Shown: positions 1 to 20,554, counted from the first letter of the stretch. The stretch is DNA of 64,000 nucleotides from an uncultured Planctomycetia bacterium (GCA_964430735.1 CAYSFB010000005.1:110390-174389); one strand, 5' to 3'. Notes: generated by a model from the sequence alone, not told the origin. Numbers and translations: made by a program.

Positions 1-1
1 C

Positions 2-526
2 GGAGAGACGATTTTCATCCAGAAGTGGAAGCGGCTCATGCCCGACATCGACATCTTCGGCTGCAACATTTACCGCGGCAAGGACGGCTTCGGCAAGAGC
101 TTCTGGGACAACGTCAAAAAATACACCGGCAAGCCCGTGTTCATCACCGAATACGGCTGCCCCGCGTTCCACAACCAGCGTTCTCAAAAAGAAGCCGAAG
201 CGCTCCAGTCGGAATACCTTGTCGGCAACTGGGCCGACATCTGGTACAACCGCGCCGGGTCGGCGATGGGCAATTCCATCGGCGGAACGCTCTTCCAGTA
301 CGTCGACGAGTGGTGGAAGGCGGGACCTCCTCCGGAGTTCGATCCGTTCCAACAGGACACGGTTGGTGATTTCAAGGCGGACTTCCCGGACGGCTGGATG
401 CACGAGGAATGGCTCGGCATCACCAGCCAGGGCGACGGAACCAAGAGCCCCTTTTTGCGGCATTTGCGCCAAAGCTACTTTGATTTAAAACGAGTCTGGA
501 ACCAAGAAAAGGAGAATCCGTCATGA
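2..526 (+). CDS. 5'-truncated CDS, C-terminal part of a clan GH-A-like glycoside hydrolase domain protein
   Basis: The frame is open from the window edge to TGA at 524-526. The translation (...PDIDIFGCNIYRG...VFITEYGCPAF...FQYVDEWWKAGPP) parallels the repeat unit of the 1699-aa protein at 2084..7183 ([13 protein letters not shown]...[11 protein letters not shown]...[11 protein letters not shown]). The stop overlaps the next ATG (ATGA at 523-526). Confidence 0.6.
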   Translation, partial: GETIFIQKWKRLMPDIDIFGCNIYRGKDGFGKSFWDNVKKYTGKPVFITEYGCPAFHNQRSQKEAEALQSEYLVGNWADIWYNRAGSAMGNSIGGTLFQYVDEWWKAGPPPEFDPFQQDTVGDFKADFPDGWMHEEWLGITSQGDGTKSPFLRHLRQSYFDLKRVWNQEKENPS

Positions 527-1143
527 AACGCATCCTGACCCCCGCCGTCATCGCGCCGATGGCCGCGCTGACGCTGTTCGCGACCCTCATCCTCGGACCC
601 CAGTCGGGCAGCCTTGCCGAAGGCGCCTTCAAGGTGTTCCCGGTCTACACGGACGCGAGCGCCCCGGACAACCATTTTGCCCCCACCGGCTGGATGGGCG
701 ACTATTCCGACATCACCGTGGACGACACGTTCACCGTGAACCCGCATTCCGGTTCCACCAGCGTCAAAATCACGTACTCCAAGGCCTCCACTCAAGGGGC
801 CGGCTGGTCGGGCGTCTACTGGCAGGAACCGGCCAACAACTGGGGCAACCGTCCCGGCGGCTATGACCTGACCGGCGCCACCAAACTCACCTTCTGGGCC
901 CGCGGCGACAAGGGCGGGGAAGTGATCAACGAGATCAAGATCGGCGGCATCAAGGGCCAGTATCCGGACACGACTGTGGCCGGCATCGGACCCGTGGTTC
1001 TGACGACCGAGTGGAAGGAATACTCCATCGACCTCACCGGCAAGGACCTGACGAATATCATCGGCGGGTTCTGCTGGGCGACGAGCCTGGACAAGAATCC
1101 CAACGGGGCCGTATTCTATTTTGACGACATTCGCTACGAGTAA
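523..1143 (+). CDS. secreted protein with a putative glycan-binding beta-sandwich domain (signal peptide, paralog of 1180..1935)
   Basis: ATG 523 with AAAAGGAGA SD at 508-515. N-terminal signal peptide MKRILTPAVIAPMAALTLFATLILG. Shares GWMGDYSD...NPHSGSTS...WQxPANNWGNRPGGYDLTG.TKLTFWARG...FY.DDIRYE with the next gene. The family is not confidently recognised. Confidence 0.6.
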   Translation: MKRILTPAVIAPMAALTLFATLILGPQSGSLAEGAFKVFPVYTDASAPDNHFAPTGWMGDYSDITVDDTFTVNPHSGSTSVKITYSKASTQGAGWSGVYWQEPANNWGNRPGGYDLTGATKLTFWARGDKGGEVINEIKIGGIKGQYPDTTVAGIGPVVLTTEWKEYSIDLTGKDLTNIIGGFCWATSLDKNPNGAVFYFDDIRYE

Positions 1144-1179
1144 ACGCACGAACCCTACACGCAGTTGCAAGGAGTCTCT

Positions 1180-1935
1180 ATGAAATCATTCTTCAAGTTG
1201 ATGGGCCTGTTTGCGGTCGCCGTCGCGATCGCCGGCTGCGCCAAAGAGCCCGCGTCGGGGTTCAAGGTCGAAAACGCCGCTCCGACCTCGGCCGGCGCGA
1301 GCTCCGTCGGCAGCGACGTGGCCAACGCGGTGAGCCGCGTTTCGGAATACGAGGAAGTTCCCGCTCCGGCTTCGGGTGCGGCTCCCTCCCAGTCGGCTCC
1401 GGCCAATTCCGGCGGCGCCTTCCGCAACTTCCCGATCTACACGGACGAAAGCTCTCCCGACAACCATTACTATCCGTCGGGATGGATGGGCGATTACTCG
1501 GATCTGACCTTTGACAGCGCCTATCTGCAGAATCCGCACTCGGGCAGCACCTCGATCCGCATCTCCTACAGCAACAAGGCGACGCAGGGCGCCCGCTGGA
1601 CCGGCATTTACTGGCAGAATCCGGCCAATAACTGGGGCAACCGTCCCGGCGGCTACGACCTGACCGGGTCGACCAAACTCACGTTCTGGGCCCGCGGCGA
1701 AAAAGGCGGCGAGCGCATCGAAGAGTTCAAGATGGGCGGAATGACGGGCGAATACTCGGATTCCGACCTGGCCGGCATCGGACCCGTGGTCCTTACGCAG
1801 GAGTGGAAGCAGTACACGATCGAGCTTGAGGACAAGGACCTTTCCTCGATCACCGGTGGCTTCGCTTGGGCGGCGAATATCGATAACAATCCGGACGGCA
1901 TGGTTTTTTATCTCGACGATATCCGCTACGAATAA
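1180..1935 (+). CDS. lipoprotein paralog of 523..1143 (putative glycan-binding domain with an N-terminal low-complexity Ala/Ser/Pro linker)
   Basis: ATG 1180 with AAGGAG at 1169-1174 (the ORF track starts at TTG 1165). Lipobox-like LFAVAVAIAGC. The C-terminal 170 aa are about 55% identical to the previous ORF. Confidence 0.6.
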   Translation: MKSFFKLMGLFAVAVAIAGCAKEPASGFKVENAAPTSAGASSVGSDVANAVSRVSEYEEVPAPASGAAPSQSAPANSGGAFRNFPIYTDESSPDNHYYPSGWMGDYSDLTFDSAYLQNPHSGSTSIRISYSNKATQGARWTGIYWQNPANNWGNRPGGYDLTGSTKLTFWARGEKGGERIEEFKMGGMTGEYSDSDLAGIGPVVLTQEWKQYTIELEDKDLSSITGGFAWAANIDNNPDGMVFYLDDIRYE

Positions 1936-1960
1936 GATCGGCGGGATTTGAAAAAATCTC

Positions 1961-2027
1961 AAAAATTACAGCTGGAGATTCTTCCCGAAGTTTGGCACAA
2001 TACGGGGAATCTCCAGCTGTAATTTTT
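1961..2027. repeat. perfect 21-bp inverted repeat (AAAAATTACAGCTGGAGATTC / GAATCTCCAGCTGTAATTTTT) with a 25-nt loop, followed by T-runs; terminator-like or regulatory hairpin
   Basis: Arms 1961..1981 and 2007..2027 are exact reverse complements. It lies 26 nt after the stop at 1935. TTTTTTGCCGTTTTT follows. Confidence 0.5.
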
Positions 2028-2083
2028 TGCCGTTTTTAGACTGATCACGACCGTCCAACTTACCAAGAATCAGGGACTATTCT

Positions 2084-5000
2084 ATGGCCGACGCCGCCGA
2101 AAAAAAGAACAATAAAAAAGGCATCTTTTTCATCATTTTCTCAACGCTGGCTTTGGTCGGCGGCGGCGCGTATTTATGGCACCTGAGCTCGGCCAACCAA
2201 ATGCCGTCCTTGAGCATCCAGCGATACGGCGACGGCGGTTACCTGTTCAAGCTGAACGACAAGCCCTTCCTGGTCAAAGGCTTCTGCTACAACCCGATTC
2301 CGGCGGGCAAGGATTTTGAGTATGACTTCTGGGCCGATCCCGGCAAGCCCTGGCTGACCGACGGCAAGCTCATGAAAGAAGCCGGCGTCAATGCCGTGCG
2401 CATCTACCGGACCGGCAAACATCCCAAACTGACCAAACAGGGAATTTCTGATCTGCATCAGAAGTTCGGCATCCGCACCTTCGTGGGTCACTACCTCGGG
2501 TTCTGGGACTGGCCCCCGGCGAATTACGCCAACGGCGGCTTCCAGAAAAAGATGACGGTCGACGTCGTGAACATGGTCCGCGAGTACAAGGATCAGCCCG
2601 GCATCATCGGCTGGATCCTCGGCAACGAAAACAACTACAGCTTCGACCGCAATATCCGCAACTGGTCCAACGAAGACATCGACAAGCTCGGCGACGCCGA
2701 GAAAATGTGGGAAGCCCGCGCCCGCATCTACTACCGCTTCGTCAACGAAGTCGCGAAGGAAGTCAAAAAGGTCGATCCCACGCGTCCCGTTATCATGGGA
2801 ATCGGCGAAATCAAATCGCTTCATATCGCCGCCCAGGAAACACCCGATATCGACGTGCTCGGCATCATCGCGTATCGCGGGGCGAGCTTCGGCAACCTGT
2901 TCCGTCAGGTCAAGCAGACCTACGACAAGCCCGTGCTCATGATCGAGTTCGGCGCCGACCGCTTCAACGCCTATACCCGCGAAGAAGACCAGATGTCGCA
3001 GACCCGTTTCGTCGAAACGCAGTGGAAGGACATCGAGCGCAACTCCGTCGCCAAGACCGGCAGCGGCAATGCGATCGGGGGTCTGGTGTTCGAATGGACG
3101 GATGAGTGGTGGAAGGCCAACGAAGCGCTGGCCCACACGTGGGGCATCCACGACCAGGCGGCTCAATGGTCCCATTCCGCGTATTACTACGATTACGAAG
3201 CGCCCGGCCGCATGAACATCAACGAAGAGTGGTGGGGCGTCGTCTCGATCAAGCCCCGTCCGCAAGAAGTCGAAAACGGCGTCGACGCGCGCATTCCGAC
3301 CAAGGCGTATTACGTGCTCAAGCAGCTTTGGACCAAGGGAATCGGCGCCGTCGCTGACACCGGCACCAAGGCCGTCTCTGTAACTCCGCCTACGGCCGTT
3401 CCGACGGTTGTCGAGACTCCGGCTGCGTTGACGCTCAAGTCCACACCTGAGGGAGGGTACTCGCTTTTCCTGAACGGCAACCCGTTCTGGGTCCAGGGCG
3501 CATCTTACGGAAGCGGTGGTTCTGGCCAGGGCGGAGGCTCCGGTTCTGCGGGAGGCTCGGGTTCGGGCTCTGGTTCTGGCTCGGGCGCAGGTGTTGGTTC
3601 AGGCTCGGGTTCGGGCTCTGGCACCGGTTCGGGTGTTGGTTCTGGCTCAGGCGTTGGTTCTGGCACAGGCTCCGGCGTCGGTTCGGGTGCCGGCTTGGGT
3701 TCGGGTACCGGTGTGGGCGCCGGGTCCGGTGTCGGAATTTCTTCATCGGCTGTTTCGCTGAGCCAATTGGGACGGTCCGGCTATGACCTGGGATCCGCGG
3801 CGCTCGTGGGCGGCTATTGGAACCACCCGGGTTCTCCTTGGAAGAATGATGCCGCAGCCATGCGTCCTTACGGGATCAATACGGTTTTTATTTCGGTGGA
3901 TCCTTCCGCCGTTCCGGCTTCGGTCAAGGCGACGGACGACTTTTATCAGCAAAAGATCTACTCGGTTATCGGGTATGACCTCGGCTACAACGCTGTGAGT
4001 CCGCTCGATTATTCCGATCCTTCCGTTCAGAAGTCCGTTTTGGATGTCGCGCTTCAGATGGTTCGCGAAGCCAAGGGCCGCGAGCACGTTCTCGCCTATG
4101 TGATCGGCTATAAGAACCATCTTCCTTATGAGTCGGCATCGACACCGGAGAACCGCGCCGCGGTCGAAGCTTACTTCACCTTTGCAAACAAAGTCGCCGA
4201 AGAGATCAAGAAGCTGGATCCTTCCAGAATCGTCATCCTTCAGCTGGTTGATCGTACGCGTTATGCCGATGAATTGAAGCGTCTCATTCCGCGCATCGAT
4301 GTGATCGGCGTGATCCGCGATCAAGCAGAGCGCGTCGGTCCGCTGATCGATTATTATCAGGATAAGACCGTCAAGCCGGTCATCGTGATGTTCGGTGCGG
4401 ATAGTTACAACGCACGGACCGGCCGTCCTGATGAAGATGCGCAGGCGCGCTTTTTGACCGACGCCTGGAAAGACATCCAAGCCGGAACCACGCTCGCGTC
4501 ACCCAAGGGGACTGCCTTGGGCGGAGTGGTTTATGAATGGGTCGATCAATGGTGGCGCGCCGACGCGTCCTCGGCTTCGGGCGCTCTGGTTCAGGACCCG
4601 ACCGTTCAAGGCTCCAGCCCGATTTATACTTATGACTACGATGCTCCTTCCAACTTGAACGTTAATGAAGAGTGGTTCGGCTTGAACCGCCTGGACCCGA
4701 ACGGCAAGGGTGGATGGGTGGTCGCGCCGAAGGAAGCGTTGCGTTCCCTGAGCGATCTGTGGATCCCGAACCTGTCGCAGATGAAGTGGCCGGCGCTTCC
4801 CGCGCGGCCCGTGGTTCTGACAGTCGCTCCGGTAGAATCAGCTCCGATGCCGGCTCCGGCCGGCTCTTCGCAGGGCCTGTCTCTGATTCCGAACACCTCG
4901 GGCGGATACACCTGGGCTTTGAACGGAGCGGCGTTCTGGGTCAAGGGCGTGGCTTACAGCTCAGGTCCCGTTTCTGATCCTTCCTCGGCGGCGTTTTGGT

Positions 5001-7183
5001 CGAATCCCGCGCGTCCGTGGCTGAAGGACGCGGGCGTTATGAAGGATGCGGGGGTCAACGCCATCCGGTTGTACACGACGGTCGAGCAGATTCTAGGATC
5101 CGTCTCGGCTGCCAAAGACTTCCATTCCAAAGGTATTTACACCTTCATGGGACATGACCTCGGGTTTTGGACCCGCCCGATGTCCGATTACCGCGACCCC
5201 GCGGTGCGTGCGGCTGTCACCTCCGAAGTACTGAAGATGGTCGAAGCCGGCAAAAACGAGCCGGGTGTTCTTGCCTGGATCCTCGGCAACGAAAACAACT
5301 CCGCATTTGAAGGTGTTCCTTCGCCCGAAAAAACTGCTCAGGCTGAGGCGTATTTTTCATTCGTCAATTCACTGGCGGAGCAGATCCGGGACATCGATCC
5401 GACCCGTCCCGTCATTATGGGCCTTGGCGAAACGCAGCACATCGACCTCGTTTCCAAGCTCACGCCGGACGTCGACGCGGTCGGCTTGATTGCGTACCGC
5501 GGAGATAACTTTGCCGGGCTTTTCACGGAGTATTCCAAAAAGATCAACAAGCCCATTCTTGCGCTTGAGTATGGCGCCGACAGCTACAACGCGCTGACCG
5601 GCGGACCGGACGAGGCTGTCCAGGCGCAGTACCTGCTCTCGCTTTGGAAGGACATCCGCCGCAACACGACCATGGACACCGCGTCCGGCGTCGCGCTGGG
5701 CGGGTTCCTGTACGAATGGGTCGACCAGTGGTGGCGTGCCGATGCGAACAATCCGGCGAGCTGGAAGGTGCAGGATGCCCAGGGCCAGTGGTCCAGTGCA
5801 TCCTACCTTTATGATTACAACGTCCCCGGCGGCCTCAATGTCAACGAGGAGTGGTTCGGCGTGATGAAGCTCGTTCCCGACACCCAGAACCCCGGATTCT
5901 TCGTCCCTGCACCCAAGCTCGCGCTCACGGGGCTCACGCCGCTGTGGAATCAGGCCGGCAGTCTGACGCCCGAAGTGCTGGGTCTCAAGATCGTCGGGCC
6001 TTCGAATCCGACGGCGGTGCGGCCTGTGCCTGCGGCAACGGCCGCCGCCCAGTCGGAATCGGCCCGCACGCCTTCGATCCGCATCGCCTCCAATAACGCA
6101 GGCGGCACGGCGTTTGCGCTGCCCGGAGGAGAATCCGTCTGGACGCGAGGCGTCGTTTACAGCCCGACTCCGATCGGTCAGGGCCCGACCTTCGATTATC
6201 TGGCCGACACGACCCGTCCCTGGACCCGCGACGGGGAATTCATGGCCAAGGCCGGCATCAATTCCGTCCTGACCTATGTCAGTCCCAACAACCTGCCGGG
6301 CGCCCAGAGCCTGGCGTCCGACCTCTACAAGACCCACAAGATCTGGACCTTTGCGGCGCTGGATCCGGGCCTTTGGTCCGGATCGCTGACGCCGGACTAC
6401 ACGGATTCGGCCGTCCGCGACCGGATTTCTGCGGAGATCCTTCAATCCGTCCAGAGTCTCAAGGGCTCCGACGGTATCGCGGCTTGGGTGATTTCGAACC
6501 GTCAGGGCTTCCTGCGCGGAGAAGATGGTCTGAGTCAGGGGAGCCGGGAAGCGTATTACACCTTCCTGAACGAGCTCACGCAGAAGATCAAATCGGCCGA
6601 TCCTTCCCGTCCGGTCATCGTCGAAGTGCTGGGCCGCGAAAACCTCAAGTGGATCGCGGGCCTCGTTCCCGACGCGGATGCGGTCGGTATTTACGGCAAG
6701 TCCGGAGCGTGGGGATGGAAGTCGGACTTCGACGCGGTCCGTTCGAATTTTGCCAAACCTGTCATCGTGCTGGCCTTCGGCGCGGACAGCTACAACATGC
6801 GGTCCGCCGCTCCGGACGAGGAAGCCCAGGCCTGGATGATCGAATCCCAGTGGCGGGCGCTCGACCCCCAGACGACCCGCTTGAACGATTCCGGTCAGGT
6901 GCTCGGTGGATTCGTTTACGAATGGACGGACTCCTGGTGGAAGGCCGATCCTGCGAACCCGTCGACCTGGTCGGTGCAGGACGTCTCGGCCCAGAGCTCG
7001 AGCCGCGCTTATCCCGCGGATTATGAAGTGGCCGGCAACCAAAACGTGAATGACGAGTGGTTCGGTGTGATGAAGGTCCAGCCGTCCGTCGCCGGTTCGG
7101 CGGCGCCCGTTTTGGCGCCCAAGAAGGTCTACGAGACTCTGACGCAGATGTGGGCTTCTCCCAAGGAAGTCTGCGCCGGCTAG
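2084..7183 (+). CDS. 1699-aa membrane-anchored protein with four tandem clan GH-A-like TIM-barrel (GH2/GH5-like) domains, alternately catalytically intact and degenerate
   Basis: ATG 2084. N-terminal TM helix [19 protein letters not shown]. Repeats 1 and 3 keep the acid/base motif WILGNENN (nt ~2611 and ~5281) and the nucleophile region IEFGAD / LEYGAD. Repeats 2 and 4 have VIGYKNH / VISNRQG and MFGAD / LAFGAD, so both Glu residues are lost. All four conserve EW[TV]D.WW[KR]A. Confidence 0.6.
3508..3748 (+). repeat. low-complexity Gly-Ser(-Ala/Val/Thr) linker (GSGSGxGSG...) between GH repeats 1 and 2; degenerate GGC-TCG/TCT-GGT nucleotide repeat
   Basis: About 80 aa of [46 protein letters not shown]... 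are read in frame. Confidence 0.8.
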
Positions 7184-7207
7184 GAGTTGCCAGTCCGGCG
7201 GTTTTTT
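7174..7207 (+). terminator. hairpin CGCCGG-15 nt-CCGGCG followed by GTTTTTT overlapping the stop of the GH gene; intrinsic-terminator-like
   Basis: Seen directly. The loop is large (15 nt), so the call is weak. Confidence 0.35.
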
Positions 7208-7260
7208 AATATCCTATACCGATTCATTTTTAGGCCGTAAACACAGAGGAAGTACCGTTT

Positions 7261-8427
7261 ATGGGTTCGATTCGTACCGCGATTTTTGGCGTCGGCAACT
7301 GTGCAAGCTCACTCGTTCAGGGCCGCTTTTATTATGCGGACCGCAAGGCGAACGTTCCGGGCCTGATCACCAAGAGCTTCGGCGGCTACTACGCGGCGGA
7401 CATCGAATACGTGGCGGCCTTTGACATCGACCGGCGCAAAGTCGGCCTCGACCTTTCCAAGGCCATTTTTTCGCCCCCCAACTGCACGACGATCTTCCAG
7501 TCCAAGATCCCGAACATGAAGTGCACGGTCGAGCAGGGCTACATCATCGATTCCATCGCCGCGCACAACCAGGACTTCAGCGAGAATCAGCGCTTCGAAC
7601 CCCTCAAGAACCGCGACGCGTCGGCCGCCGAGGCCAAGGCGCGCATTGTGAAGTCCCTGAAGGCCAAGGGCGTCGAAGTCGTCGTCAATTATCTTCCCGT
7701 CGGCAGCGAGCAGAACGTCCGCTTCTACGCGCAATGCGCCCTTGAGGCGGGATGCGCGTTCGTCAATGCCGTTCCCGTGTTCGTGTCCAAGATCATGGGC
7801 GAGGACTTCCGCCGCAAAGGCCTTCCGATCCTCGGCGATGACATCAAATCCCAGGTCGGCGCCACCATCGTCCACCGCGTGCTCGCGAAGCTGTTCGAGG
7901 ACCGGGGCCAATCGATCAAGCGCACGTATCAGCTCAACGTCGGCGGCAACACCGATTTCATGAACATGCTCGACCGCACGCGCCTGGAGTCCAAGAAGAT
8001 CTCGAAGACCCAGGCCGTCACCAGCCAGATCAGCAGCGACAACACGCTCCCCAAGGACGACGTCCACGTGGGCCCGAGCGACTTCGTGCCCTGGCTCAAC
8101 GACAACAAGCTCTGCTTCATCCGCATCGAGGCCGAGCAGTTCGGCGGCGTGCCGATGAACCTCGAGCTGCGTCTCTCGGTCGAGGACTCCCCGAATTCCG
8201 CCGGCGTCATCACCGACGCCATCCGCGCGGCCAAGGTCGCGCTCGACCGGGGCCTGGGCGGACCGATCATCGACGCGTCGGCCTATCTCTTCAAGTCGCC
8301 CGTGAAGCAGTTCGACGACGCGGTCGCCCGTCAGATGCTCATCGACTTCGCGAACTCCGCGTCGGCCAAGCCGGCCGCCAAGTCCGCAGGCAAGGCCCGC
8401 TCCAAGCGCGCCGCGCTGGCCGCATAG
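7261..8427 (+). CDS. ino1: myo-inositol-1-phosphate synthase (bacterial/archaeal type)
   Basis: Motifs AIFGVGNCASSLVQG, YLPVGSE, FYAQCALEAGCAFVNA, GDDIKSQVGATIVHRVLAKLFEDRG and QLNVGGNTDFMNMLDRTRLESKKISKTQAVTS match actinobacterial Ino1 almost residue for residue. SD AGAGGAAG lies upstream. Confidence 0.92.
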   Translation: MGSIRTAIFGVGNCASSLVQGRFYYADRKANVPGLITKSFGGYYAADIEYVAAFDIDRRKVGLDLSKAIFSPPNCTTIFQSKIPNMKCTVEQGYIIDSIAAHNQDFSENQRFEPLKNRDASAAEAKARIVKSLKAKGVEVVVNYLPVGSEQNVRFYAQCALEAGCAFVNAVPVFVSKIMGEDFRRKGLPILGDDIKSQVGATIVHRVLAKLFEDRGQSIKRTYQLNVGGNTDFMNMLDRTRLESKKISKTQAVTSQISSDNTLPKDDVHVGPSDFVPWLNDNKLCFIRIEAEQFGGVPMNLELRLSVEDSPNSAGVITDAIRAAKVALDRGLGGPIIDASAYLFKSPVKQFDDAVARQMLIDFANSASAKPAAKSAGKARSKRAALAA

Positions 8428-8525
8428 CCCTCAAGGGCCCGAGAGTCCTCCTGAGCCCCAAGAAGACCTTCACGCTCCTTTCCTGGAACATCAACGGAAT
8501 CCGTTCCGCTGAGAAAAAAGGCTTT

Positions 8526-9233
8526 TTGGACTGGATGAAAACCGCCGGCGCCGACCTCATCGGCGTCCAGGAAACAAAAGCCCACCCCGATCAACTGACT
8601 CCGACCCTGCGCAACCCGGAAGGTTTTTTCACCTCCTGGGCGTCCGCCGAACGCAAAGGCTACAGCGGCGTGGCGACTTTTTCCAAACGCCAGCCGGTCA
8701 AGACGACGATCGGCTGCGGGGTGGCGGAGTTTGATCTCGAGGGGCGGGTGATCCAGACGGACTTCGAGGACTTCACCCACTTCAACATTTACTTTCCGAA
8801 CGGCCAGCGCGACGACGTACGGCTCAAATACAAGCTCAAGTTCTACGACCATATCCTGGACGTGTTCGAGGGTTTGCGCCGCAAGGGCCGCAAGGTCGTG
8901 ATCGCGGGGGACGTGAACACGGCCCATCAGGAGATCGACCTCGCCCGGCCCAAGGAAAACAGCAAAACGTCGGGCTTTTTGCCCGTTGAAAGGGCCTGGA
9001 TCGACAAGCTGGTGAGCCTGGGGTACATCGACACGCTGCGCGTTTTCCGCAAGGAACCGGGCCTTTACACCTGGTGGGACCAGATCAGCCGCGCCCGCGA
9101 GCGCAACGTCGGCTGGCGCATCGATTACCACATCGTTTCGGCCGATTTGGCCCCCCATCTGGACGACGCCTGGACCGAGCCCGATGTCATGGGCTCGGAC
9201 CATTGCCCGGTGGGACTCAGGCTTGCCTTTTGA
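8526..9233 (+). CDS. xth: exodeoxyribonuclease III / AP endonuclease (the called TTG start is probably too far downstream)
   Basis: GVQETK, NIYFPNG, VIAGDVNTAHQEIDL, GYIDTLR, WRIDYHIVS and SDHCPV all match. The conserved N-terminal WNINGIR block is encoded in frame upstream (8484-8504) with no ATG, GTG or TTG. Confidence 0.85.
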   Translation: MDWMKTAGADLIGVQETKAHPDQLTPTLRNPEGFFTSWASAERKGYSGVATFSKRQPVKTTIGCGVAEFDLEGRVIQTDFEDFTHFNIYFPNGQRDDVRLKYKLKFYDHILDVFEGLRRKGRKVVIAGDVNTAHQEIDLARPKENSKTSGFLPVERAWIDKLVSLGYIDTLRVFRKEPGLYTWWDQISRARERNVGWRIDYHIVSADLAPHLDDAWTEPDVMGSDHCPVGLRLAF

Positions 9234-12026: not shown

Positions 12027-13319
12027 ATGGCTTCCTGGCAATCACTCGGACAAGTCGAAACGCTCAAGCAAAAGCCGGTCCAGGAAGTCTGGGTCGACGG
12101 CAAGCTCGTTGCGCTCACTTATCATGACGGCGCGTTCGGCGCCGTTTCTGGCACCTGCCTTCATATCGGCGGGCCTCTCGGGCAGGGGAAGATCAATGTC
12201 GAAGGCTATCTCGTCTGTCCCTGGCATCAGTGGATGTTCCATTGCAAGACCGGCCAGGCACGGCCGGGGATTCCGGCGCAAGTCGCCAGCTATGAACTTA
12301 AAATCGAGAACGGCGAACTTTTTATCAATCCGGCTTCGACGACCCAGGACAAGCACGCCGAACACAAGCCGCATCCGCTGACCCGCAAGCCCGTCCGCAC
12401 ACCCGGTCCCGTCCGCGTGCTCGGCATCTCCACGACGGCCATGAACAAGGATTTTCCGCGCGTCTCCACCTCGGATGCGGTGCTCGAAGAAGCGCTGGCC
12501 CATGCGAAGAAGTCCGGGTCCGAAACTCAGCTCATCAAGCTCAACGACCTCAAGTTCCGCGCGTGTGAAGGGTATTATTCCAAAAGTGCCGAGGCCTGCA
12601 CCTGGCCGTGCTCGATCACGCAGATGGACCCGGCCGACGAGCTCGACCGCGTGTACGAAGCGCTCGTCTTTTGGGCCGACGTTGTCCTGATCTCGACGCC
12701 GATTCGCTGGGGCGCGGCGAGTTCGTTGTACTTCAAGATGGTCGAGCGGATGAATTGCATCCAGAACCAGGAAACGATCGCGAACAACACGCTCATTCAG
12801 AACAAGGTCGCCGCGTTCCTGATCACCGGAGGCCAGGACAATATTCAGGCGGTCGCCGGCCAGATGATGACTTTTTTCACCGAGATCGGCTTCGTGTTCC
12901 CGCCGCATTCCTTCGTCGCGCACAGCCGCGGCTGGGCGGCCGAGGATATGGAAAGCAACGTGGCTGCGGTGCTCGGAAGCGATGATTTGAAGAAGGACGT
13001 CCGTGAGCTGGTCGATCGGTGCATCGAAACGGCCAAGCCGTTGGTCGCAAAGTCCGACCAGGCCGCCAAACAGGGGGACAGAACCGTGAATCACAAGCAG
13101 AACGCGCCGTTTGTGAAGGATGAGACTCCGGGCCGCAAGGCATGGTGCTCCTGCGGAGAATCCGCCAACCAGCCCTACTGCGACGGCAGCCACAAGATCA
13201 AGAACACCGGCAAAAGCCCCGTCATCGTCGAGATCACCGAAGCCAAAAAAGTCGCGTGGTGCGGCTGCAAGCAGTCGGGCAGCGGCCCCTTTTGCGACGG
13301 CTCGCATAAAAAAATCTAA
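12027..13319 (+). CDS. three-domain redox fusion: N-terminal Rieske [2Fe-2S], central flavodoxin-like NAD(P)H-dependent FMN reductase (Isf-like), and two C-terminal CDGSH iron-sulfur motifs
   Basis: Rieske CLHIGGPL...CPWHQW. Flavodoxin-like VRVLGISTTAMNKDFPRVSTSDAVLEEALAHAK with Cys cluster RACEGYYSKSAEACTWPC. Two CDGSHK motifs in the last 50 aa. Confidence 0.7.
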   Translation: MASWQSLGQVETLKQKPVQEVWVDGKLVALTYHDGAFGAVSGTCLHIGGPLGQGKINVEGYLVCPWHQWMFHCKTGQARPGIPAQVASYELKIENGELFINPASTTQDKHAEHKPHPLTRKPVRTPGPVRVLGISTTAMNKDFPRVSTSDAVLEEALAHAKKSGSETQLIKLNDLKFRACEGYYSKSAEACTWPCSITQMDPADELDRVYEALVFWADVVLISTPIRWGAASSLYFKMVERMNCIQNQETIANNTLIQNKVAAFLITGGQDNIQAVAGQMMTFFTEIGFVFPPHSFVAHSRGWAAEDMESNVAAVLGSDDLKKDVRELVDRCIETAKPLVAKSDQAAKQGDRTVNHKQNAPFVKDETPGRKAWCSCGESANQPYCDGSHKIKNTGKSPVIVEITEAKKVAWCGCKQSGSGPFCDGSHKKI

Positions 13320-18016: not shown

Positions 18017-20554
18017 TCAGGACTGCGGAGTGAAGGCCGGCTCTTTGAAGTTCCCGGTGATCAGGTAGCGGGTGATTTTGTTCTCGGCGATGTTGATGAG
18101 GGCGGGGGTAAGACCTCCGACTTCGCTGGCCTCGCGGATGATGCCGGATGTGAAGCGCGAGACCACGTTGAGGGCCATTGTCGTATCGAAGCCAATGCGG
18201 CCGTTGAAGTGCACATCGATCAGATCCGAAGACATCGTGCAGTCGTCCGTTCGAACTTCGCCGCCCGAAACGGTGAAAGATCCGTTGGCGCTTTTGAACA
18301 CGATATTCTCGGCCCCCTCGATCGTGACGAAGAGCACCTTTTTGAGCCGCTTGAAGAGCTCCGTCTGCCACAACTGCCCGTCGCTCACCCGGAAGCTTCC
18401 CTGACCTTTGAACGACTTCGGATCGGTCATGACGCCCGACAGGACGAGGTCCAGGTTCAGGAGCCCTGAGAATTTGTTCTTGATGAAGTCGAGCTTTTCG
18501 CAGAATTTGCCGAGATCCGCGTCCTGCGTGAAGATGTGCGTTTCGAAATAAGGCTTTTTCAGATCCGTCAGGTCCGCGCGTCCCGTCGCCCGCGCTTCGC
18601 CGCCGTAGAATCCTGCCTTCGCGTATAGAATCTCGAGGATTCCCGATTCGAGCCGGAGATCGGCCTCGATCGGCGCAAACGTCACCGTGTCCGCGACCGT
18701 GAGCCGGTCCGATTCGGCTTCCAGACGCAGGCTGACGGAGTTCAGGTTCTTGAACGAGCCGTGCACGTGGCCTTTGCCGTCGATGACGCCTTTGAGCTTC
18801 AGGTTCTTGAGCCAGGGCTGTTGGGCCTGCCAGTCAGCCGCCAGGCGTTCGGGGACCAGGTGCGCGCGGAAGTCCGCGTTGATCACGGGGTTTTTCATCA
18901 GGATCAGGGTGCCGGACGCGCCCGCATGCGACGGACCCGACTCGAGCGTCAGCGTCGAGAATTCGATCCGGTCGGAGAAGGAACGGAAGCGCGCTCCGAC
19001 CTCCCATTTGCGGGTCGCGAGGTTGACGCGGCCCAGGCCGCCGGGCGCGTTGCTGAATTGGCCGCTCAGCGTGTAGTTGTCTTTGCCGTGACGGAAGAAC
19101 AGGTCGTCCGTTCCGAATACGCGCATGTCCTGGACGGTGATCGTGCCGTTCAGCTCGGTGATCGGACTTTTGAGCGGCTTGGGTTCGAGGCGTCCGTTCC
19201 GGACATCGAGCCGGATCGACCGGATGTTCCGGGTGAGTTCCGAGGGGAGGCCCGACATCGTGGCTTCGAGCTTGAGATCGCCTTTGAGCGATCCGGGGTT
19301 CAGCGCATGCTCGAAGACCTTGGGCGCCATCGGCCGCCACACGTTGAGATCGGAGAGGGTCTGGCGCAGCGTGAGCTCGGTCCGGTGGGATTCGGACCGG
19401 TCGACCGTGCCTTCGACCGTAAAGCTGGTTTTGTCCCAGGTACCCTGGATGCGCGGAATCTCGATCAGTTCCGGGTTCCAGGCGACCGCCGCGGAGCTCA
19501 AGCGCACTTCACGAATGTTGTCGGTGAGATTCCTGGCCGTCACGGACTTGGCCTCAAGCAGACCGTCGGTGACGCGGAGCTTGCGGTCGTTGAAGTCAAA
19601 GGATCCGGAGAGTTTGACGCCGAAGGCACCCGCGGCTTCGCGTCGGCCCCAGCGTCCTTCGAGCGCCGCCCGTTTGGATTCCAAATCGAAGGTCAGCAGC
19701 GTCGCCCCGTCGTATCGCAGGTCGAACGAGGCGTCGCCGCGCAACTTGTTGATGCTGATGCTGTGCTTTAAAAGCGCCGGGACGAGCCAGGAGGGGACGC
19801 GGTCGATATTGCCGGTCAGGTTGAGCCGATGCCGTCCGTCGGCCAGGTTCACGAGGCCTTCGGCCTTGAATTCCCCGCGGCCGAACGAAGTCCTGAAGTC
19901 GGCCTGCACCGGAATCAGCGGACGGCGCGACAGCTGCGTCCGGAAATGGATTTCTTTGAGCACTTCGATCGGTTCCGTCGCCGCGGCTGCGCCTGGTTTG
20001 GCCGCGGGCAGGATCGAGATGCGGCCGTGGCGGATCTCGAGCTCGTTCAGGTAAACGTTGGACGGCAGGAACGAATCGTCGAAGATGGCCTCGAGCACGA
20101 CGAACGGGTGGGGGACGGGGTTCTCGACCGGTACGGGAGCGTCTTCCGAACCGGCCGGCGCGGCCGGGGCTGGAACCGCGGCGGGTTTGGGCTTTACAGG
20201 ACCCAGCCGGACTTCGGTGACGGCCGAGTCGACTTCGATTTTTTGCAGGACGATCCGGTCGTCCTGGAGAAAAGCCGGCAGGTCCGTCGCCAGCCGGATC
20301 GATTGCGCGCGGAACAGCTCTTCTCCTTTTTTGCCTTTGAGCACCGGTCGGTCGATCCGGATCCCGTGGAACGGCAGGTAGTGGACGCGCTCGAAGTCCG
20401 CCTCGAATCCGGTGGCTTTGCGGATGGCGTCGATGGGGATTTGTTTGAGGTTGCCGGGCAATAGTCCCCAATGCCAGTACGCCGCCGCCAGGACGAGCAG
20501 GAGGAGGATGAGGATTCTGAGGAAACGCCGTAAGGCGGCGACATGGGAGCGCAT
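18017..20554 (-). CDS. AsmA-family-like large envelope protein (N-terminal TM anchor plus long periplasmic beta-rich region)
   Basis: The longest ORF in this region. N-terminal LRILILLLLVLAAAYWHW. No enzymatic motifs. Family assignment is by architecture only. Confidence 0.45.
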   Translation of the reverse strand: MRSHVAALRRFLRILILLLLVLAAAYWHWGLLPGNLKQIPIDAIRKATGFEADFERVHYLPFHGIRIDRPVLKGKKGEELFRAQSIRLATDLPAFLQDDRIVLQKIEVDSAVTEVRLGPVKPKPAAVPAPAAPAGSEDAPVPVENPVPHPFVVLEAIFDDSFLPSNVYLNELEIRHGRISILPAAKPGAAAATEPIEVLKEIHFRTQLSRRPLIPVQADFRTSFGRGEFKAEGLVNLADGRHRLNLTGNIDRVPSWLVPALLKHSISINKLRGDASFDLRYDGATLLTFDLESKRAALEGRWGRREAAGAFGVKLSGSFDFNDRKLRVTDGLLEAKSVTARNLTDNIREVRLSSAAVAWNPELIEIPRIQGTWDKTSFTVEGTVDRSESHRTELTLRQTLSDLNVWRPMAPKVFEHALNPGSLKGDLKLEATMSGLPSELTRNIRSIRLDVRNGRLEPKPLKSPITELNGTITVQDMRVFGTDDLFFRHGKDNYTLSGQFSNAPGGLGRVNLATRKWEVGARFRSFSDRIEFSTLTLESGPSHAGASGTLILMKNPVINADFRAHLVPERLAADWQAQQPWLKNLKLKGVIDGKGHVHGSFKNLNSVSLRLEAESDRLTVADTVTFAPIEADLRLESGILEILYAKAGFYGGEARATGRADLTDLKKPYFETHIFTQDADLGKFCEKLDFIKNKFSGLLNLDLVLSGVMTDPKSFKGQGSFRVSDGQLWQTELFKRLKKVLFVTIEGAENIVFKSANGSFTVSGGEVRTDDCTMSSDLIDVHFNGRIGFDTTMALNVVSRFTSGIIREASEVGGLTPALINIAENKITRYLITGNFKEPAFTPQS

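Follow-up and report, generated by a model that had tools for sequence, protein, structure and literature searches.

The 64,000-nucleotide stretch of DNA analysed here (the window) is deposited as part of an uncultured Planctomycetia bacterium (GCA_964430735.1 CAYSFB010000005.1:110390-174389). It has a G+C content of ∼60%, and all genes in its first 7.2 kb lie on the plus strand. One of them encodes a 1699-residue protein made of four paralogous repeats of a glycoside hydrolase (GH) domain of clan GH-A, two with and two without the catalytic residues of the clan. This protein, assigned here to an uncultured Omnitrophota bacterium, is probably a lineage-specific tandem expansion of an anchored GH-A glycanase that closes an Omnitrophota glycan-uptake cassette, its dead repeats being kept as non-catalytic barrels with an accessory role. 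Its parts are listed below, with positions counted from the first nucleotide of the window.

2084 to 7183, plus strand: four-GH-A-repeat, predicted membrane-anchored protein of 1699 residues (open reading frame (ORF), motif and hidden Markov model (HMM) matches)
2120 to 2179, plus strand: hydrophobic N-terminal segment, residues 13 to 32, after a Lys-rich stretch (read from the sequence, without a predictor)
2207 to 3343, plus strand: repeat 1 (R1), residues 42 to 420, catalytically complete (HMM, residue alignment)
3425 to 3514, plus strand: N-terminal strands of repeat 2 (R2), residues 448 to 477 (HMM positions 1 to 35, E 3.5e-9)
3515 to 3739, plus strand: Gly/Ser-rich low-complexity insertion, residues 478 to 552, in the β1-α1 loop of R2
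3740 to 4774, plus strand: main part of R2, residues 553 to 897, degenerate (residue alignment)
4874 to 5959, plus strand: repeat 3 (R3), residues 931 to 1292, catalytically complete (residue alignment and structure model)
6074 to 7165, plus strand: repeat 4 (R4), residues 1331 to 1694, degenerate (residue alignment)

The four repeats, each of ∼360 residues, share 32 to 42% pairwise identity, and an HMM built from them recovers every one at E 1e-159 to 1e-187, far beyond chance. An earlier note, made from the sequence alone, had described four GH-A-like repeats in this protein, and both the motifs and the HMM matches bear this out. The two segments predicted to carry the catalytic glutamates read WILGNENN (residue 177) and IEFGAD (residue 287) in R1, and WILGNENN (residue 1065) and LEYGAD (residue 1161) in R3. 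The corresponding segments are VIGYKNH (residue 673) and MFGAD (residue 769) in R2, and VISNRQG (residue 1469) and LAFGAD (residue 1563) in R4. The motif EW[TV]D.WW[KR]A occurs once per repeat, at residues 337, 818, 1211 and 1613. Misassembly as the source of the four-repeat gene was rejected on three grounds: two assembled contigs encode the identical 1699-residue protein, repeats of this identity are too divergent for assembler collapse or a chimera, and three-repeat orthologues have linkers that match the ones seen here.

A stretch of 75 residues, including 39 Gly and 20 Ser and encoded by imperfect 12/18/48-nt tandem repeats, had been taken for a linker of ∼80 residues between repeats 1 and 2, a placement that the HMM overturns. 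Residues 448 to 482 match HMM positions 1 to 35 and residues 557 to 896 match positions 34 to 362; since the two segments flank the Gly/Ser stretch in HMM order, it is inserted within R2, after strand β1. The real linker between R1 and R2 is the Pro/Thr-rich segment of residues 421 to 447; each repeat ends at helix α8, and the inter-repeat linkers are Pro/Thr/Ala-rich and 27 to 38 residues long. The orthologue P0002 carries a 189-residue insertion at the site of the Gly/Ser stretch, a shorter one occupies this loop in the R3-type domain of the orthologue P0003, and in the R3 structure model the loop is the sole segment with a predicted local distance difference test (pLDDT) score below 50. In a TIM barrel, the β1-α1 loop lies on the catalytic face.

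At the N-terminus, the hydrophobic segment is kept in orthologues and in single-domain homologues; it reads as an uncleaved signal peptide or a signal anchor, and the barrels are probably outside the cytoplasm. At the other end, all multi-repeat proteins (P0001 to P0004 and the window protein, residues 1690 to 1699, window 7150 to 7180) have a conserved Cys 2 to 4 residues before the C-terminus, in the contexts EVCAG, DVCPG, DVCMGKG, DVCLGKS and ACDCG. It may serve in sorting, in lipidation or in a disulfide bond.

Structurally, the domain is a (β/α)8 barrel of clan GH-A with its acid/base Glu after β4 and its nucleophile Glu after β7, an assignment on which Pfam, profile, AlphaFold and Foldseek results agree. 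The Pfam family GH2_C (PF02836, a TIM barrel) matches R1 and R3 in two stretches with 78.7 bits against a 21-bit cut-off, and GH72 matches are weaker. A profile of 26 domains of the family, compared with known structures, finds GH158 best (9ORO, E 1.7e-17; 6PAL, E 1.8e-16), followed by GH2 β-glucuronidases and β-galactosidases; the match to GH158 spans 195 to 240 of 378 positions at 16 to 21% identity. Structure models cover R3 and a small protein of the same cassette with the fold of a carbohydrate-binding module (CBM). The AlphaFold model of R3 is a barrel of eight strand-helix units (pLDDT 85.7, predicted template modelling score 0.89), and its best Foldseek match in the PDB is again GH158 (E 2.8e-15, template modelling score (TM) 0.57-0.64), then GH157 and GH2, the top matches all being clan GH-A enzymes at 14 to 21% identity.

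In the R3 model, the catalytic motifs sit where strands 132-137 and 228-233 end. In the profile alignment, the G-N-E of the family falls on N136/E137 of BuGH158 and x-E-F/Y-G on E220, with E143 and E229 as the GH158(Pro) counterparts (GH158 numbering derived from the printed profile alignment), and the catalytic Glu positions coincide in the GH2 alignment (5C70) as well. Alanine mutants of the catalytic Glu residues of BuGH158 are inactive (PMC7157763), and a covalent glycosyl-enzyme intermediate was observed on E229 of GH158(Pro) (PMC13195107). The assignment to clan GH-A and the choice of the two catalytic Glu, both proposed from the sequence, are thus correct, the two Glu aligning with experimentally proven residues.

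The evidence indicates a family related to GH158 rather than a clear member of it. The domain shares with the GH158 endo-β-1,3-glucanases (BuGH158, 6PAL; GH158(Pro), 9P25/9ORO) the clan GH-A barrel and the catalytic Asn-Glu and Glu positions. However, in GH158 a C-terminal eight-stranded Ig-like domain shapes the cleft (PMC7157763), whereas none follows any of the four repeats, a Pro/Ala-rich linker standing there instead. GH158 proteins are also single-domain enzymes within SusC/D polysaccharide utilization loci (PULs), whereas an ATP-binding cassette (ABC) importer is encoded here. With the GH2 catalytic barrel (PF02836; β-glucuronidases, LacZ) the domain shares the Pfam match of R1 and R3, the fold matches and the Glu positions. 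In GH2 enzymes the barrel follows a sugar-binding jelly-roll domain and Ig-like domains at the N-terminus, whereas the barrels seen here, at 14 to 18% identity, stand alone; Pfam finds neither GH2_N nor a GH2 Ig-like domain in the 1699-residue protein or in a 668-residue GH of the same family encoded upstream. Given the low identity, the missing Ig-like and N-terminal domains and an insertion of its own between β8 and α8, membership in either GH158 or GH2 proper is at most putative. This conserved insertion of ∼60 residues, with D.WWK and NEEW, marks the GH-A family described here. Of 1.84 billion cluster representatives (50% identity clusters), 5385 match the family at E <= 1e-3, a number that falls to 2576 for E <= 1e-10 and to 1045 for E <= 1e-30. 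One large group (P0005 to P0032, ∼1050 residues) has a single intact barrel and then a C-terminal region of ∼650 residues without a Pfam match.

The catalytic centre was tabulated over ∼75 domains of a first homologue set, which came from a full-length search limited to 8000 word-sharing candidates and probably diluted by the Gly/Ser stretch. R1 has R106, H136, N181-E182 (acid/base), Y264 and E288 (nucleophile), and R3 keeps the full Arg, His, Asn-Glu, Tyr and Glu set, its two glutamates being E1070 (in N1069-E1070) and E1162. The retention of both glutamates in repeats 1 and 3, as first noted, is thereby confirmed for the whole set, and the two repeats are probably competent retaining glycosidases. 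Repeats 2 and 4 lack the entire catalytic constellation, not just the two glutamates whose loss had been recognised. R2 has Phe for Arg, Tyr for His, Tyr-Lys for Asn-Glu and Asp-Gln for Tyr-Arg, with the nucleophile deleted; R4 has Leu for both Arg and His, Asn-Arg for Asn-Glu, Lys-Ser for Tyr-Arg and Ala for the nucleophile Glu. With the whole set gone, both are predicted to be unable to hydrolyse by the GH-A mechanism.

These replacements are characteristic of each repeat type. At the catalytic positions, R2-type domains have Phe/Gly, Tyr, Tyr-Lys and Asp/Glu-Gln and lack one residue, and R4-type domains have Leu/Ile, Leu/Val, Asn-Arg (Asn-Pro in one), Lys/Arg-Ser/Asp and Ala. Across the tabulated domains, exceptions to the β2 Arg, β4 Asn-Glu, β6 Tyr(-Arg) and β7 Glu are confined to domains of the R2 and R4 types and to a small number of eroded downstream repeats in close relatives, and the β3 position is more variable, being His or Asp in most. 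The β8 Glu-Trp, D.WW[KR] and N[ED]EW are invariant family-wide, including the degenerate repeats, in agreement with the reported retention of EW[TV]D.WW[KR]A. R4 has in addition a new, conserved GAWGW in its β6-α6 loop, which could form a sugar platform.

Loss of the catalytic residues extends beyond this protein. Among the full-length domains of the 150 best cluster representatives, 102 of 109 keep both Glu; the seven degenerate domains belong to other lineages (P0172, P0240, P0252, P0256, P0258 and P0261), so the loss occurred repeatedly. Intermediate states are seen in P0003, whose R3 reads LQYGAD (nucleophile Glu to Gln), in P0004, whose second and third repeats have Thr-Glu (LGTENN) and Arg-Glu (LGREQY) in place of Asn-Glu, and in the second domain of P0172, with Ser-Gln (LGSQNN) and Tyr to Phe. 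The first repeat is intact in P0003 (contig L007, 4529-8329), P0004 (L008, 7131-11108) and P0172 alike.

The history of the repeats can be read from the orthologues. A neighbour-joining tree shows the repeat types to be orthologous across genomes and places R2 as sister to R3, and R4 as sister to the R2-R3 pair. P0001 and P0003 have the order R1-R3-R4 and P0002 has R1-R2-R4; although P0002 and P0003 are more closely related to each other than to the rest (R1 93% and R4 90% identical), one has kept R2 and the other R3. The simplest history for so close a pair with different repeats is a four-repeat ancestor followed by independent deletions. More distant Omnitrophota (L009 to L011) encode at the syntenic position an N-terminally anchored protein of ∼410 residues with a single domain and intact motifs, 54 to 56% identical to R1 and 29 to 39% to R2-R4. 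These proteins are orthologous to R1, which shows R1 to be the ancestral enzyme and R2-R4 to be lineage-specific C-terminal additions. Constant across the multi-repeat orthologues are only R1 in first and R4 in last place. The alternation of catalytic and degenerate domains, pointed out in the earlier note, is therefore true of the 1699-residue protein and does not hold as a conserved design.

The degenerate repeats have not been decaying. Cross-genome identity is 85-93% for R1, 65-75% for R3, 71% for R2 and 68-90% for R4, and the Nei-Gojobori ratios of nonsynonymous to synonymous substitution (dN/dS) are 0.04-0.08 for R1, 0.08-0.14 for R3 and 0.06-0.20 for R4, values that are approximate owing to partly saturated dS. 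The least saturated pair, P0002 against P0003 (dS ∼0.9), gives 0.043 for R1 and 0.065 for R4. For R2 (window against P0002), dS was saturated and no ratio was obtained; at 0.24, its dN is the same as that of R4 between these two genomes. Purifying selection thus acts on the dead barrels, which are functional pseudo-enzyme domains. That repeats 2 and 4 are decaying relics was considered and rejected, dN/dS being far below 1.

Conservation of the cleft, defined by the residues at which each of the eight strands ends C-terminally, was compared with that of the rest of each domain. The invariant fraction in the cleft exceeds that elsewhere in R1 (0.95 against 0.80, p = 0.007) and R3 (0.75 against 0.58, p = 0.018), and somewhat in R2 (0.83 against 0.68, p = 0.04, two sequences only); in R4 the two are alike (0.65 against 0.60, p = 0.55). 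A homologue search with R4 only returned just two single-domain active proteins and missed known orthologues, so that the frequency of R4-type domains is not readable from it.

Two accounts of what repeats 2 and 4 do have to be weighed. The first, which takes up the earlier note and is plausible though on balance doubtful, makes them true CBMs derived from a GH barrel, the old cleft with its β8 Glu-Trp being reused to bind the glycan cut by repeats 1 and 3. GH-derived lectins have a precedent in the GH18 chi-lectins, and the account agrees with the purifying selection on both repeats, with the β8 EW, D.WW[KR] and N[ED]EW kept in every degenerate copy, with the conserved and often aromatic or basic replacements (Tyr, Tyr-Lys and His in R2; Asn-Arg and GAWGW in R4) and with the somewhat more conserved cleft of R2. 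Yet the retained motifs are invariant in the active domains too and may hence be structural to the fold, the disordered insertion of R2 occupies the former catalytic face, the R4 cleft shows no preferential conservation, which weakens reuse of the old active site, and the cassette already has two dedicated CBM-fold proteins. The second account, rather unlikely as it stands, is purely structural: repeats 2 and 4 would be rigid spacers holding the catalytic barrels off the inner membrane, or would help the rest of the chain to fold or stay stable, as the non-catalytic GH1 repeats in the pro-region of lactase-phlorizin hydrolase do, with no affinity for glycan. It draws on the uniform rather than cleft-focused conservation of R4, the variable domain number (3-4 among orthologues, 1 in most Omnitrophota), the long Pro/Thr/Ala-rich linkers that join the barrels and the N-terminal membrane anchor. 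Against it, a 360-residue barrel is a costly spacer, and the replaced cleft residues are conserved among orthologues. Glycan binding by the dead barrels is accordingly best called plausible, with support no better than that for a scaffold or spacer role.

Genomic neighborhood analysis places the protein at the end of a conserved cassette. Three further genes of the cassette lie in the window:

2 to 526, plus strand: C-terminal 174 residues of a secreted, 668-residue GH that belongs to the GH-A family described above (the window edge cuts the gene)
523 to 1143, plus strand: small secreted protein of 206 residues, CBM-like β-sandwich, its start overlapping the preceding gene by 4 nt
1180 to 1935, plus strand: its paralogue of 251 residues, with a lipoprotein signal (...AVAIAGC) and an Ala/Ser/Pro-rich spacer

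On the longer contig L001 and four orthologous contigs, the order is a giant gene, an SBP_bac_1 sugar-binding protein, two BPD_transp_1 permeases, the 668-residue GH, the two small proteins, the multi-repeat GH and inositol-1-phosphate synthase. The sugar-binding protein is CUT1-type and, with the permeases, belongs to an ABC sugar importer. Five close genomes have the cassette, and in three more distant Omnitrophota it has a single-domain GH in place of the multi-repeat one. Neighbouring genes in it either share 4 nt or lie <150 nt apart; promoter and terminator scans over 1-8600 gave no excess of sites over shuffled sequence, so that operon structure is read from gene spacing only. The upstream sugar importer, the further GH and the CBM-fold small proteins strengthen the original reading of a glycan-degradation locus.

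The genes downstream of the multi-repeat GH differ between lineages. In the distant genomes (L009 to L011), the cassette continues with a PilZ-domain protein (∼640 residues), a GH116 (E 8e-77) and a protein of ∼800 residues, and the PilZ neighbour hints at control by cyclic di-GMP. In the lineage of the window, inositol-1-phosphate synthase and housekeeping genes stand in their place, and the genes that follow the GH in the window are housekeeping genes.

The first cassette gene in the window had been described as a truncated paralog. It belongs to the same GH-A family, and only the window edge shortens it: on L001 it is complete at 668 residues, with a signal peptide, an N-terminal domain of ∼270 residues and a barrel whose catalytic motifs, WVLSNEGNYG and ITEYGCPAF, are intact. 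Residues 1-268 (L001 6437-7240, outside the window) have no Pfam assignment, the L011 orthologue giving weak TPR matches only, and the N-terminal domain recurs mid-protein in the two-barrel Omnitrophica proteins P0033-P0050.

The two small proteins are 60% identical over their shared domain, one with a signal peptide and the other with a lipobox (IAGC). The structure model is a β-sandwich (pLDDT 79.4) whose best Foldseek match is CBM30 (E 8e-7, TM 0.57/0.67), then CBM11, CBM8, CBM4 and CBM29. At the sequence level, no CBM Pfam family matches above threshold (CBM_4_9 reaches E 0.0055 and 17.5 bits against a 25.9-bit cut-off), choice_anch_J matches are sub-threshold only, and a profile search against PDB sequences gave nothing meaningful. 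None of the 1698 homologues has a Pfam domain, and among the matches listed those with a source name are almost all Omnitrophica metagenome-assembled genomes. The description of two tandem secreted, putatively glycan-binding paralogs therefore stands for paralogy and secretion signals, and for the CBM assignment at the level of fold only. Like type B CBMs (CBM30, CBM11, CBM4, CBM29) they have a β-sandwich fold by Foldseek, and like the surface glycan-binding lipoproteins of Bacteroidota PULs they are lipoproteins or secreted and are encoded between transporter and GH genes. Unlike either, they are stand-alone, unusually conserved and without a sequence-level CBM match.

As for their conservation, 24 sequences of the small-protein family have 43 invariant columns, a degree of conservation that is unusual for a CBM. 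The conserved motifs are NH..PSGWMGD, YWQ.P.NNWG, TFW.RG..GGE and GGF.W (family including P0052-P0171), and the tandem pair adjoins GH genes in all eight cassettes examined.

The substrate may, tentatively, be a β-glucan. The GH158 and GH157 relatives, the GH116 neighbour and the CBM30/CBM11-like fold of the small proteins hint weakly at this, as does the fusion of the family member P0051 to five CBM30 and one CBM11.

These observations fit together in the explanation given at the outset. R1 would be the ancestral catalytic barrel, from which repeats 2-4 would have arisen by internal duplication. Repeats 1 and 3 would cut the glycan as retaining glycosidases, and the cleavage products would be taken up via the adjacent ABC importer. 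Repeats 2 and 4 would be folded, non-catalytic barrels maintained by purifying selection, most likely in an accessory role, either holding or positioning the polymeric substrate or spacing the tethered catalytic barrels away from the membrane. Several of the results above weigh against parts of this explanation. The dN/dS values are approximate, the R4 cleft is conserved no more than its surroundings, and the former catalytic face of R2 carries a disordered insertion of 75-189 residues. Orthologues do without R2 or R3, so that the alternation of active and dead barrels is incidental, neither alternation nor pairing being required. The substrate reading, finally, is built on distant relatives and neighbouring genes.

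Giant genes flank the region on both sides. Downstream, an ORF of 11,777 residues (window 20690-56023, plus strand) has scattered Pfam domains, mostly of cytoplasmic type (His_Phos_1, cytidine deaminase, PRTase, HATPase_c, sigma-70 region 4, HEAT repeats, HPr and HTH), and fits the giant genes reported for Omnitrophota. Upstream, a second giant gene ends just before the cassette (L001 1-3278, >4070 residues; 10,376 residues in L002). Directly upstream of the downstream giant ORF and divergent from it is a gene for an 845-residue AsmA/DUF748/YdbH-like protein (window 18017-20554, minus strand). A 430-residue ORF (window 12027-13319, plus strand) is an unusual fusion of a Rieske [2Fe-2S] domain, FMN_red and two CDGSH domains.

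It has been reported in a 2026 preprint that, of the catalytic proteins encoded beside Omnitrophota giant genes, those with a GH2 catalytic domain recur most often, which is read there as support for a predatory lifestyle based on cell-wall degradation (10.64898/2026.06.07.730766). The window fits this pattern, and the giant genes on either side invite an unlikely alternative, in which the cassette belongs to the predatory or epibiotic apparatus proposed for Omnitrophota instead of scavenging environmental glycan. The GH-A proteins would then be functionally tied to the giant genes next to them and would attack polysaccharides of the prey envelope. However, the direct coupling of the GH genes is to an ABC sugar importer, with which they form one tight string, the GH and the downstream giant ORF lie ∼13 kb of housekeeping genes apart, and the cassettes of L009-L011 have no giant gene in the 9-kb flanks shown. 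Predation and scavenging are compatible, as prey glycans may be the nutrient. A bolder reading is similarly improbable: the dead barrels would form a new GH-A-derived class of CBM, acting with the CBM-fold lipoproteins and the ABC importer as a PUL-like capture system with which Omnitrophota nanobacteria harvest β-glucan or envelope glycans, possibly from a host or prey, and the catalytic domain would be the founder of a CAZy family of its own, adjacent to GH158. Another catalytic activity of repeats 2 and 4 through other residues (lyase, transglycosylase or substrate-assisted hydrolysis) is very improbable: a conserved charged residue does occupy the old acid/base position (Lys in R2, Arg in R4) and selection is purifying, but all five catalytic-site residues are lost, with the nucleophile deleted or Ala, no alternative conserved acidic pair lies at the strand ends, and no clan GH-A enzyme is known to work with neither Glu in place.

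Pseudo-enzyme copies within tandem GH repeats are a known phenomenon, found here in an uncharacterised enzyme family. Lactase-phlorizin hydrolase and Klotho are anchored polypeptides with two or four GH1 (clan GH-A) barrels, some of which lack the catalytic Glu; the dead GH1 repeats aid folding in the pro-region of lactase-phlorizin hydrolase and bind as co-receptor in Klotho. The likeness to the 1699-residue protein lies in one anchored chain of paralogous, partly non-catalytic GH-A barrels. The two systems differ from it in belonging to another GH family, in being eukaryotic and in having a C-terminal anchor; in lactase-phlorizin hydrolase the dead repeats are moreover the first two and are cleaved off, whereas here active and dead repeats alternate and the domain number varies between close relatives. 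The GH18 chi-lectins are GH-derived pseudo-enzymes. Proteins of this kind have likewise lost catalytic residues and kept fold and selection, their function having shifted to binding or to the regulation of an active partner (reviewed in PMC10211241); beta-amylase9, for example, activates alpha-amylase3 (PMC12046210). These are separate proteins, whereas the dead barrels described here are fused in cis to active paralogues.

Omnitrophota are widespread, uncultured and very small, and their lifestyle is debated, ranging from free-living fermenter to parasite or predator. The cassette is among the few clearly conserved carbohydrate systems of the phylum, and its parts are uncharacterised. If the dead barrels do not bind glycan, the 1699-residue protein would be an ordinary multi-domain glycosidase with decayed copies; if they do, they would open a new source of binding modules built on a TIM barrel. 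The four-repeat protein, with intermediate states of erosion seen in its close relatives, is a natural experiment in how duplicated enzyme domains become pseudo-enzymes.

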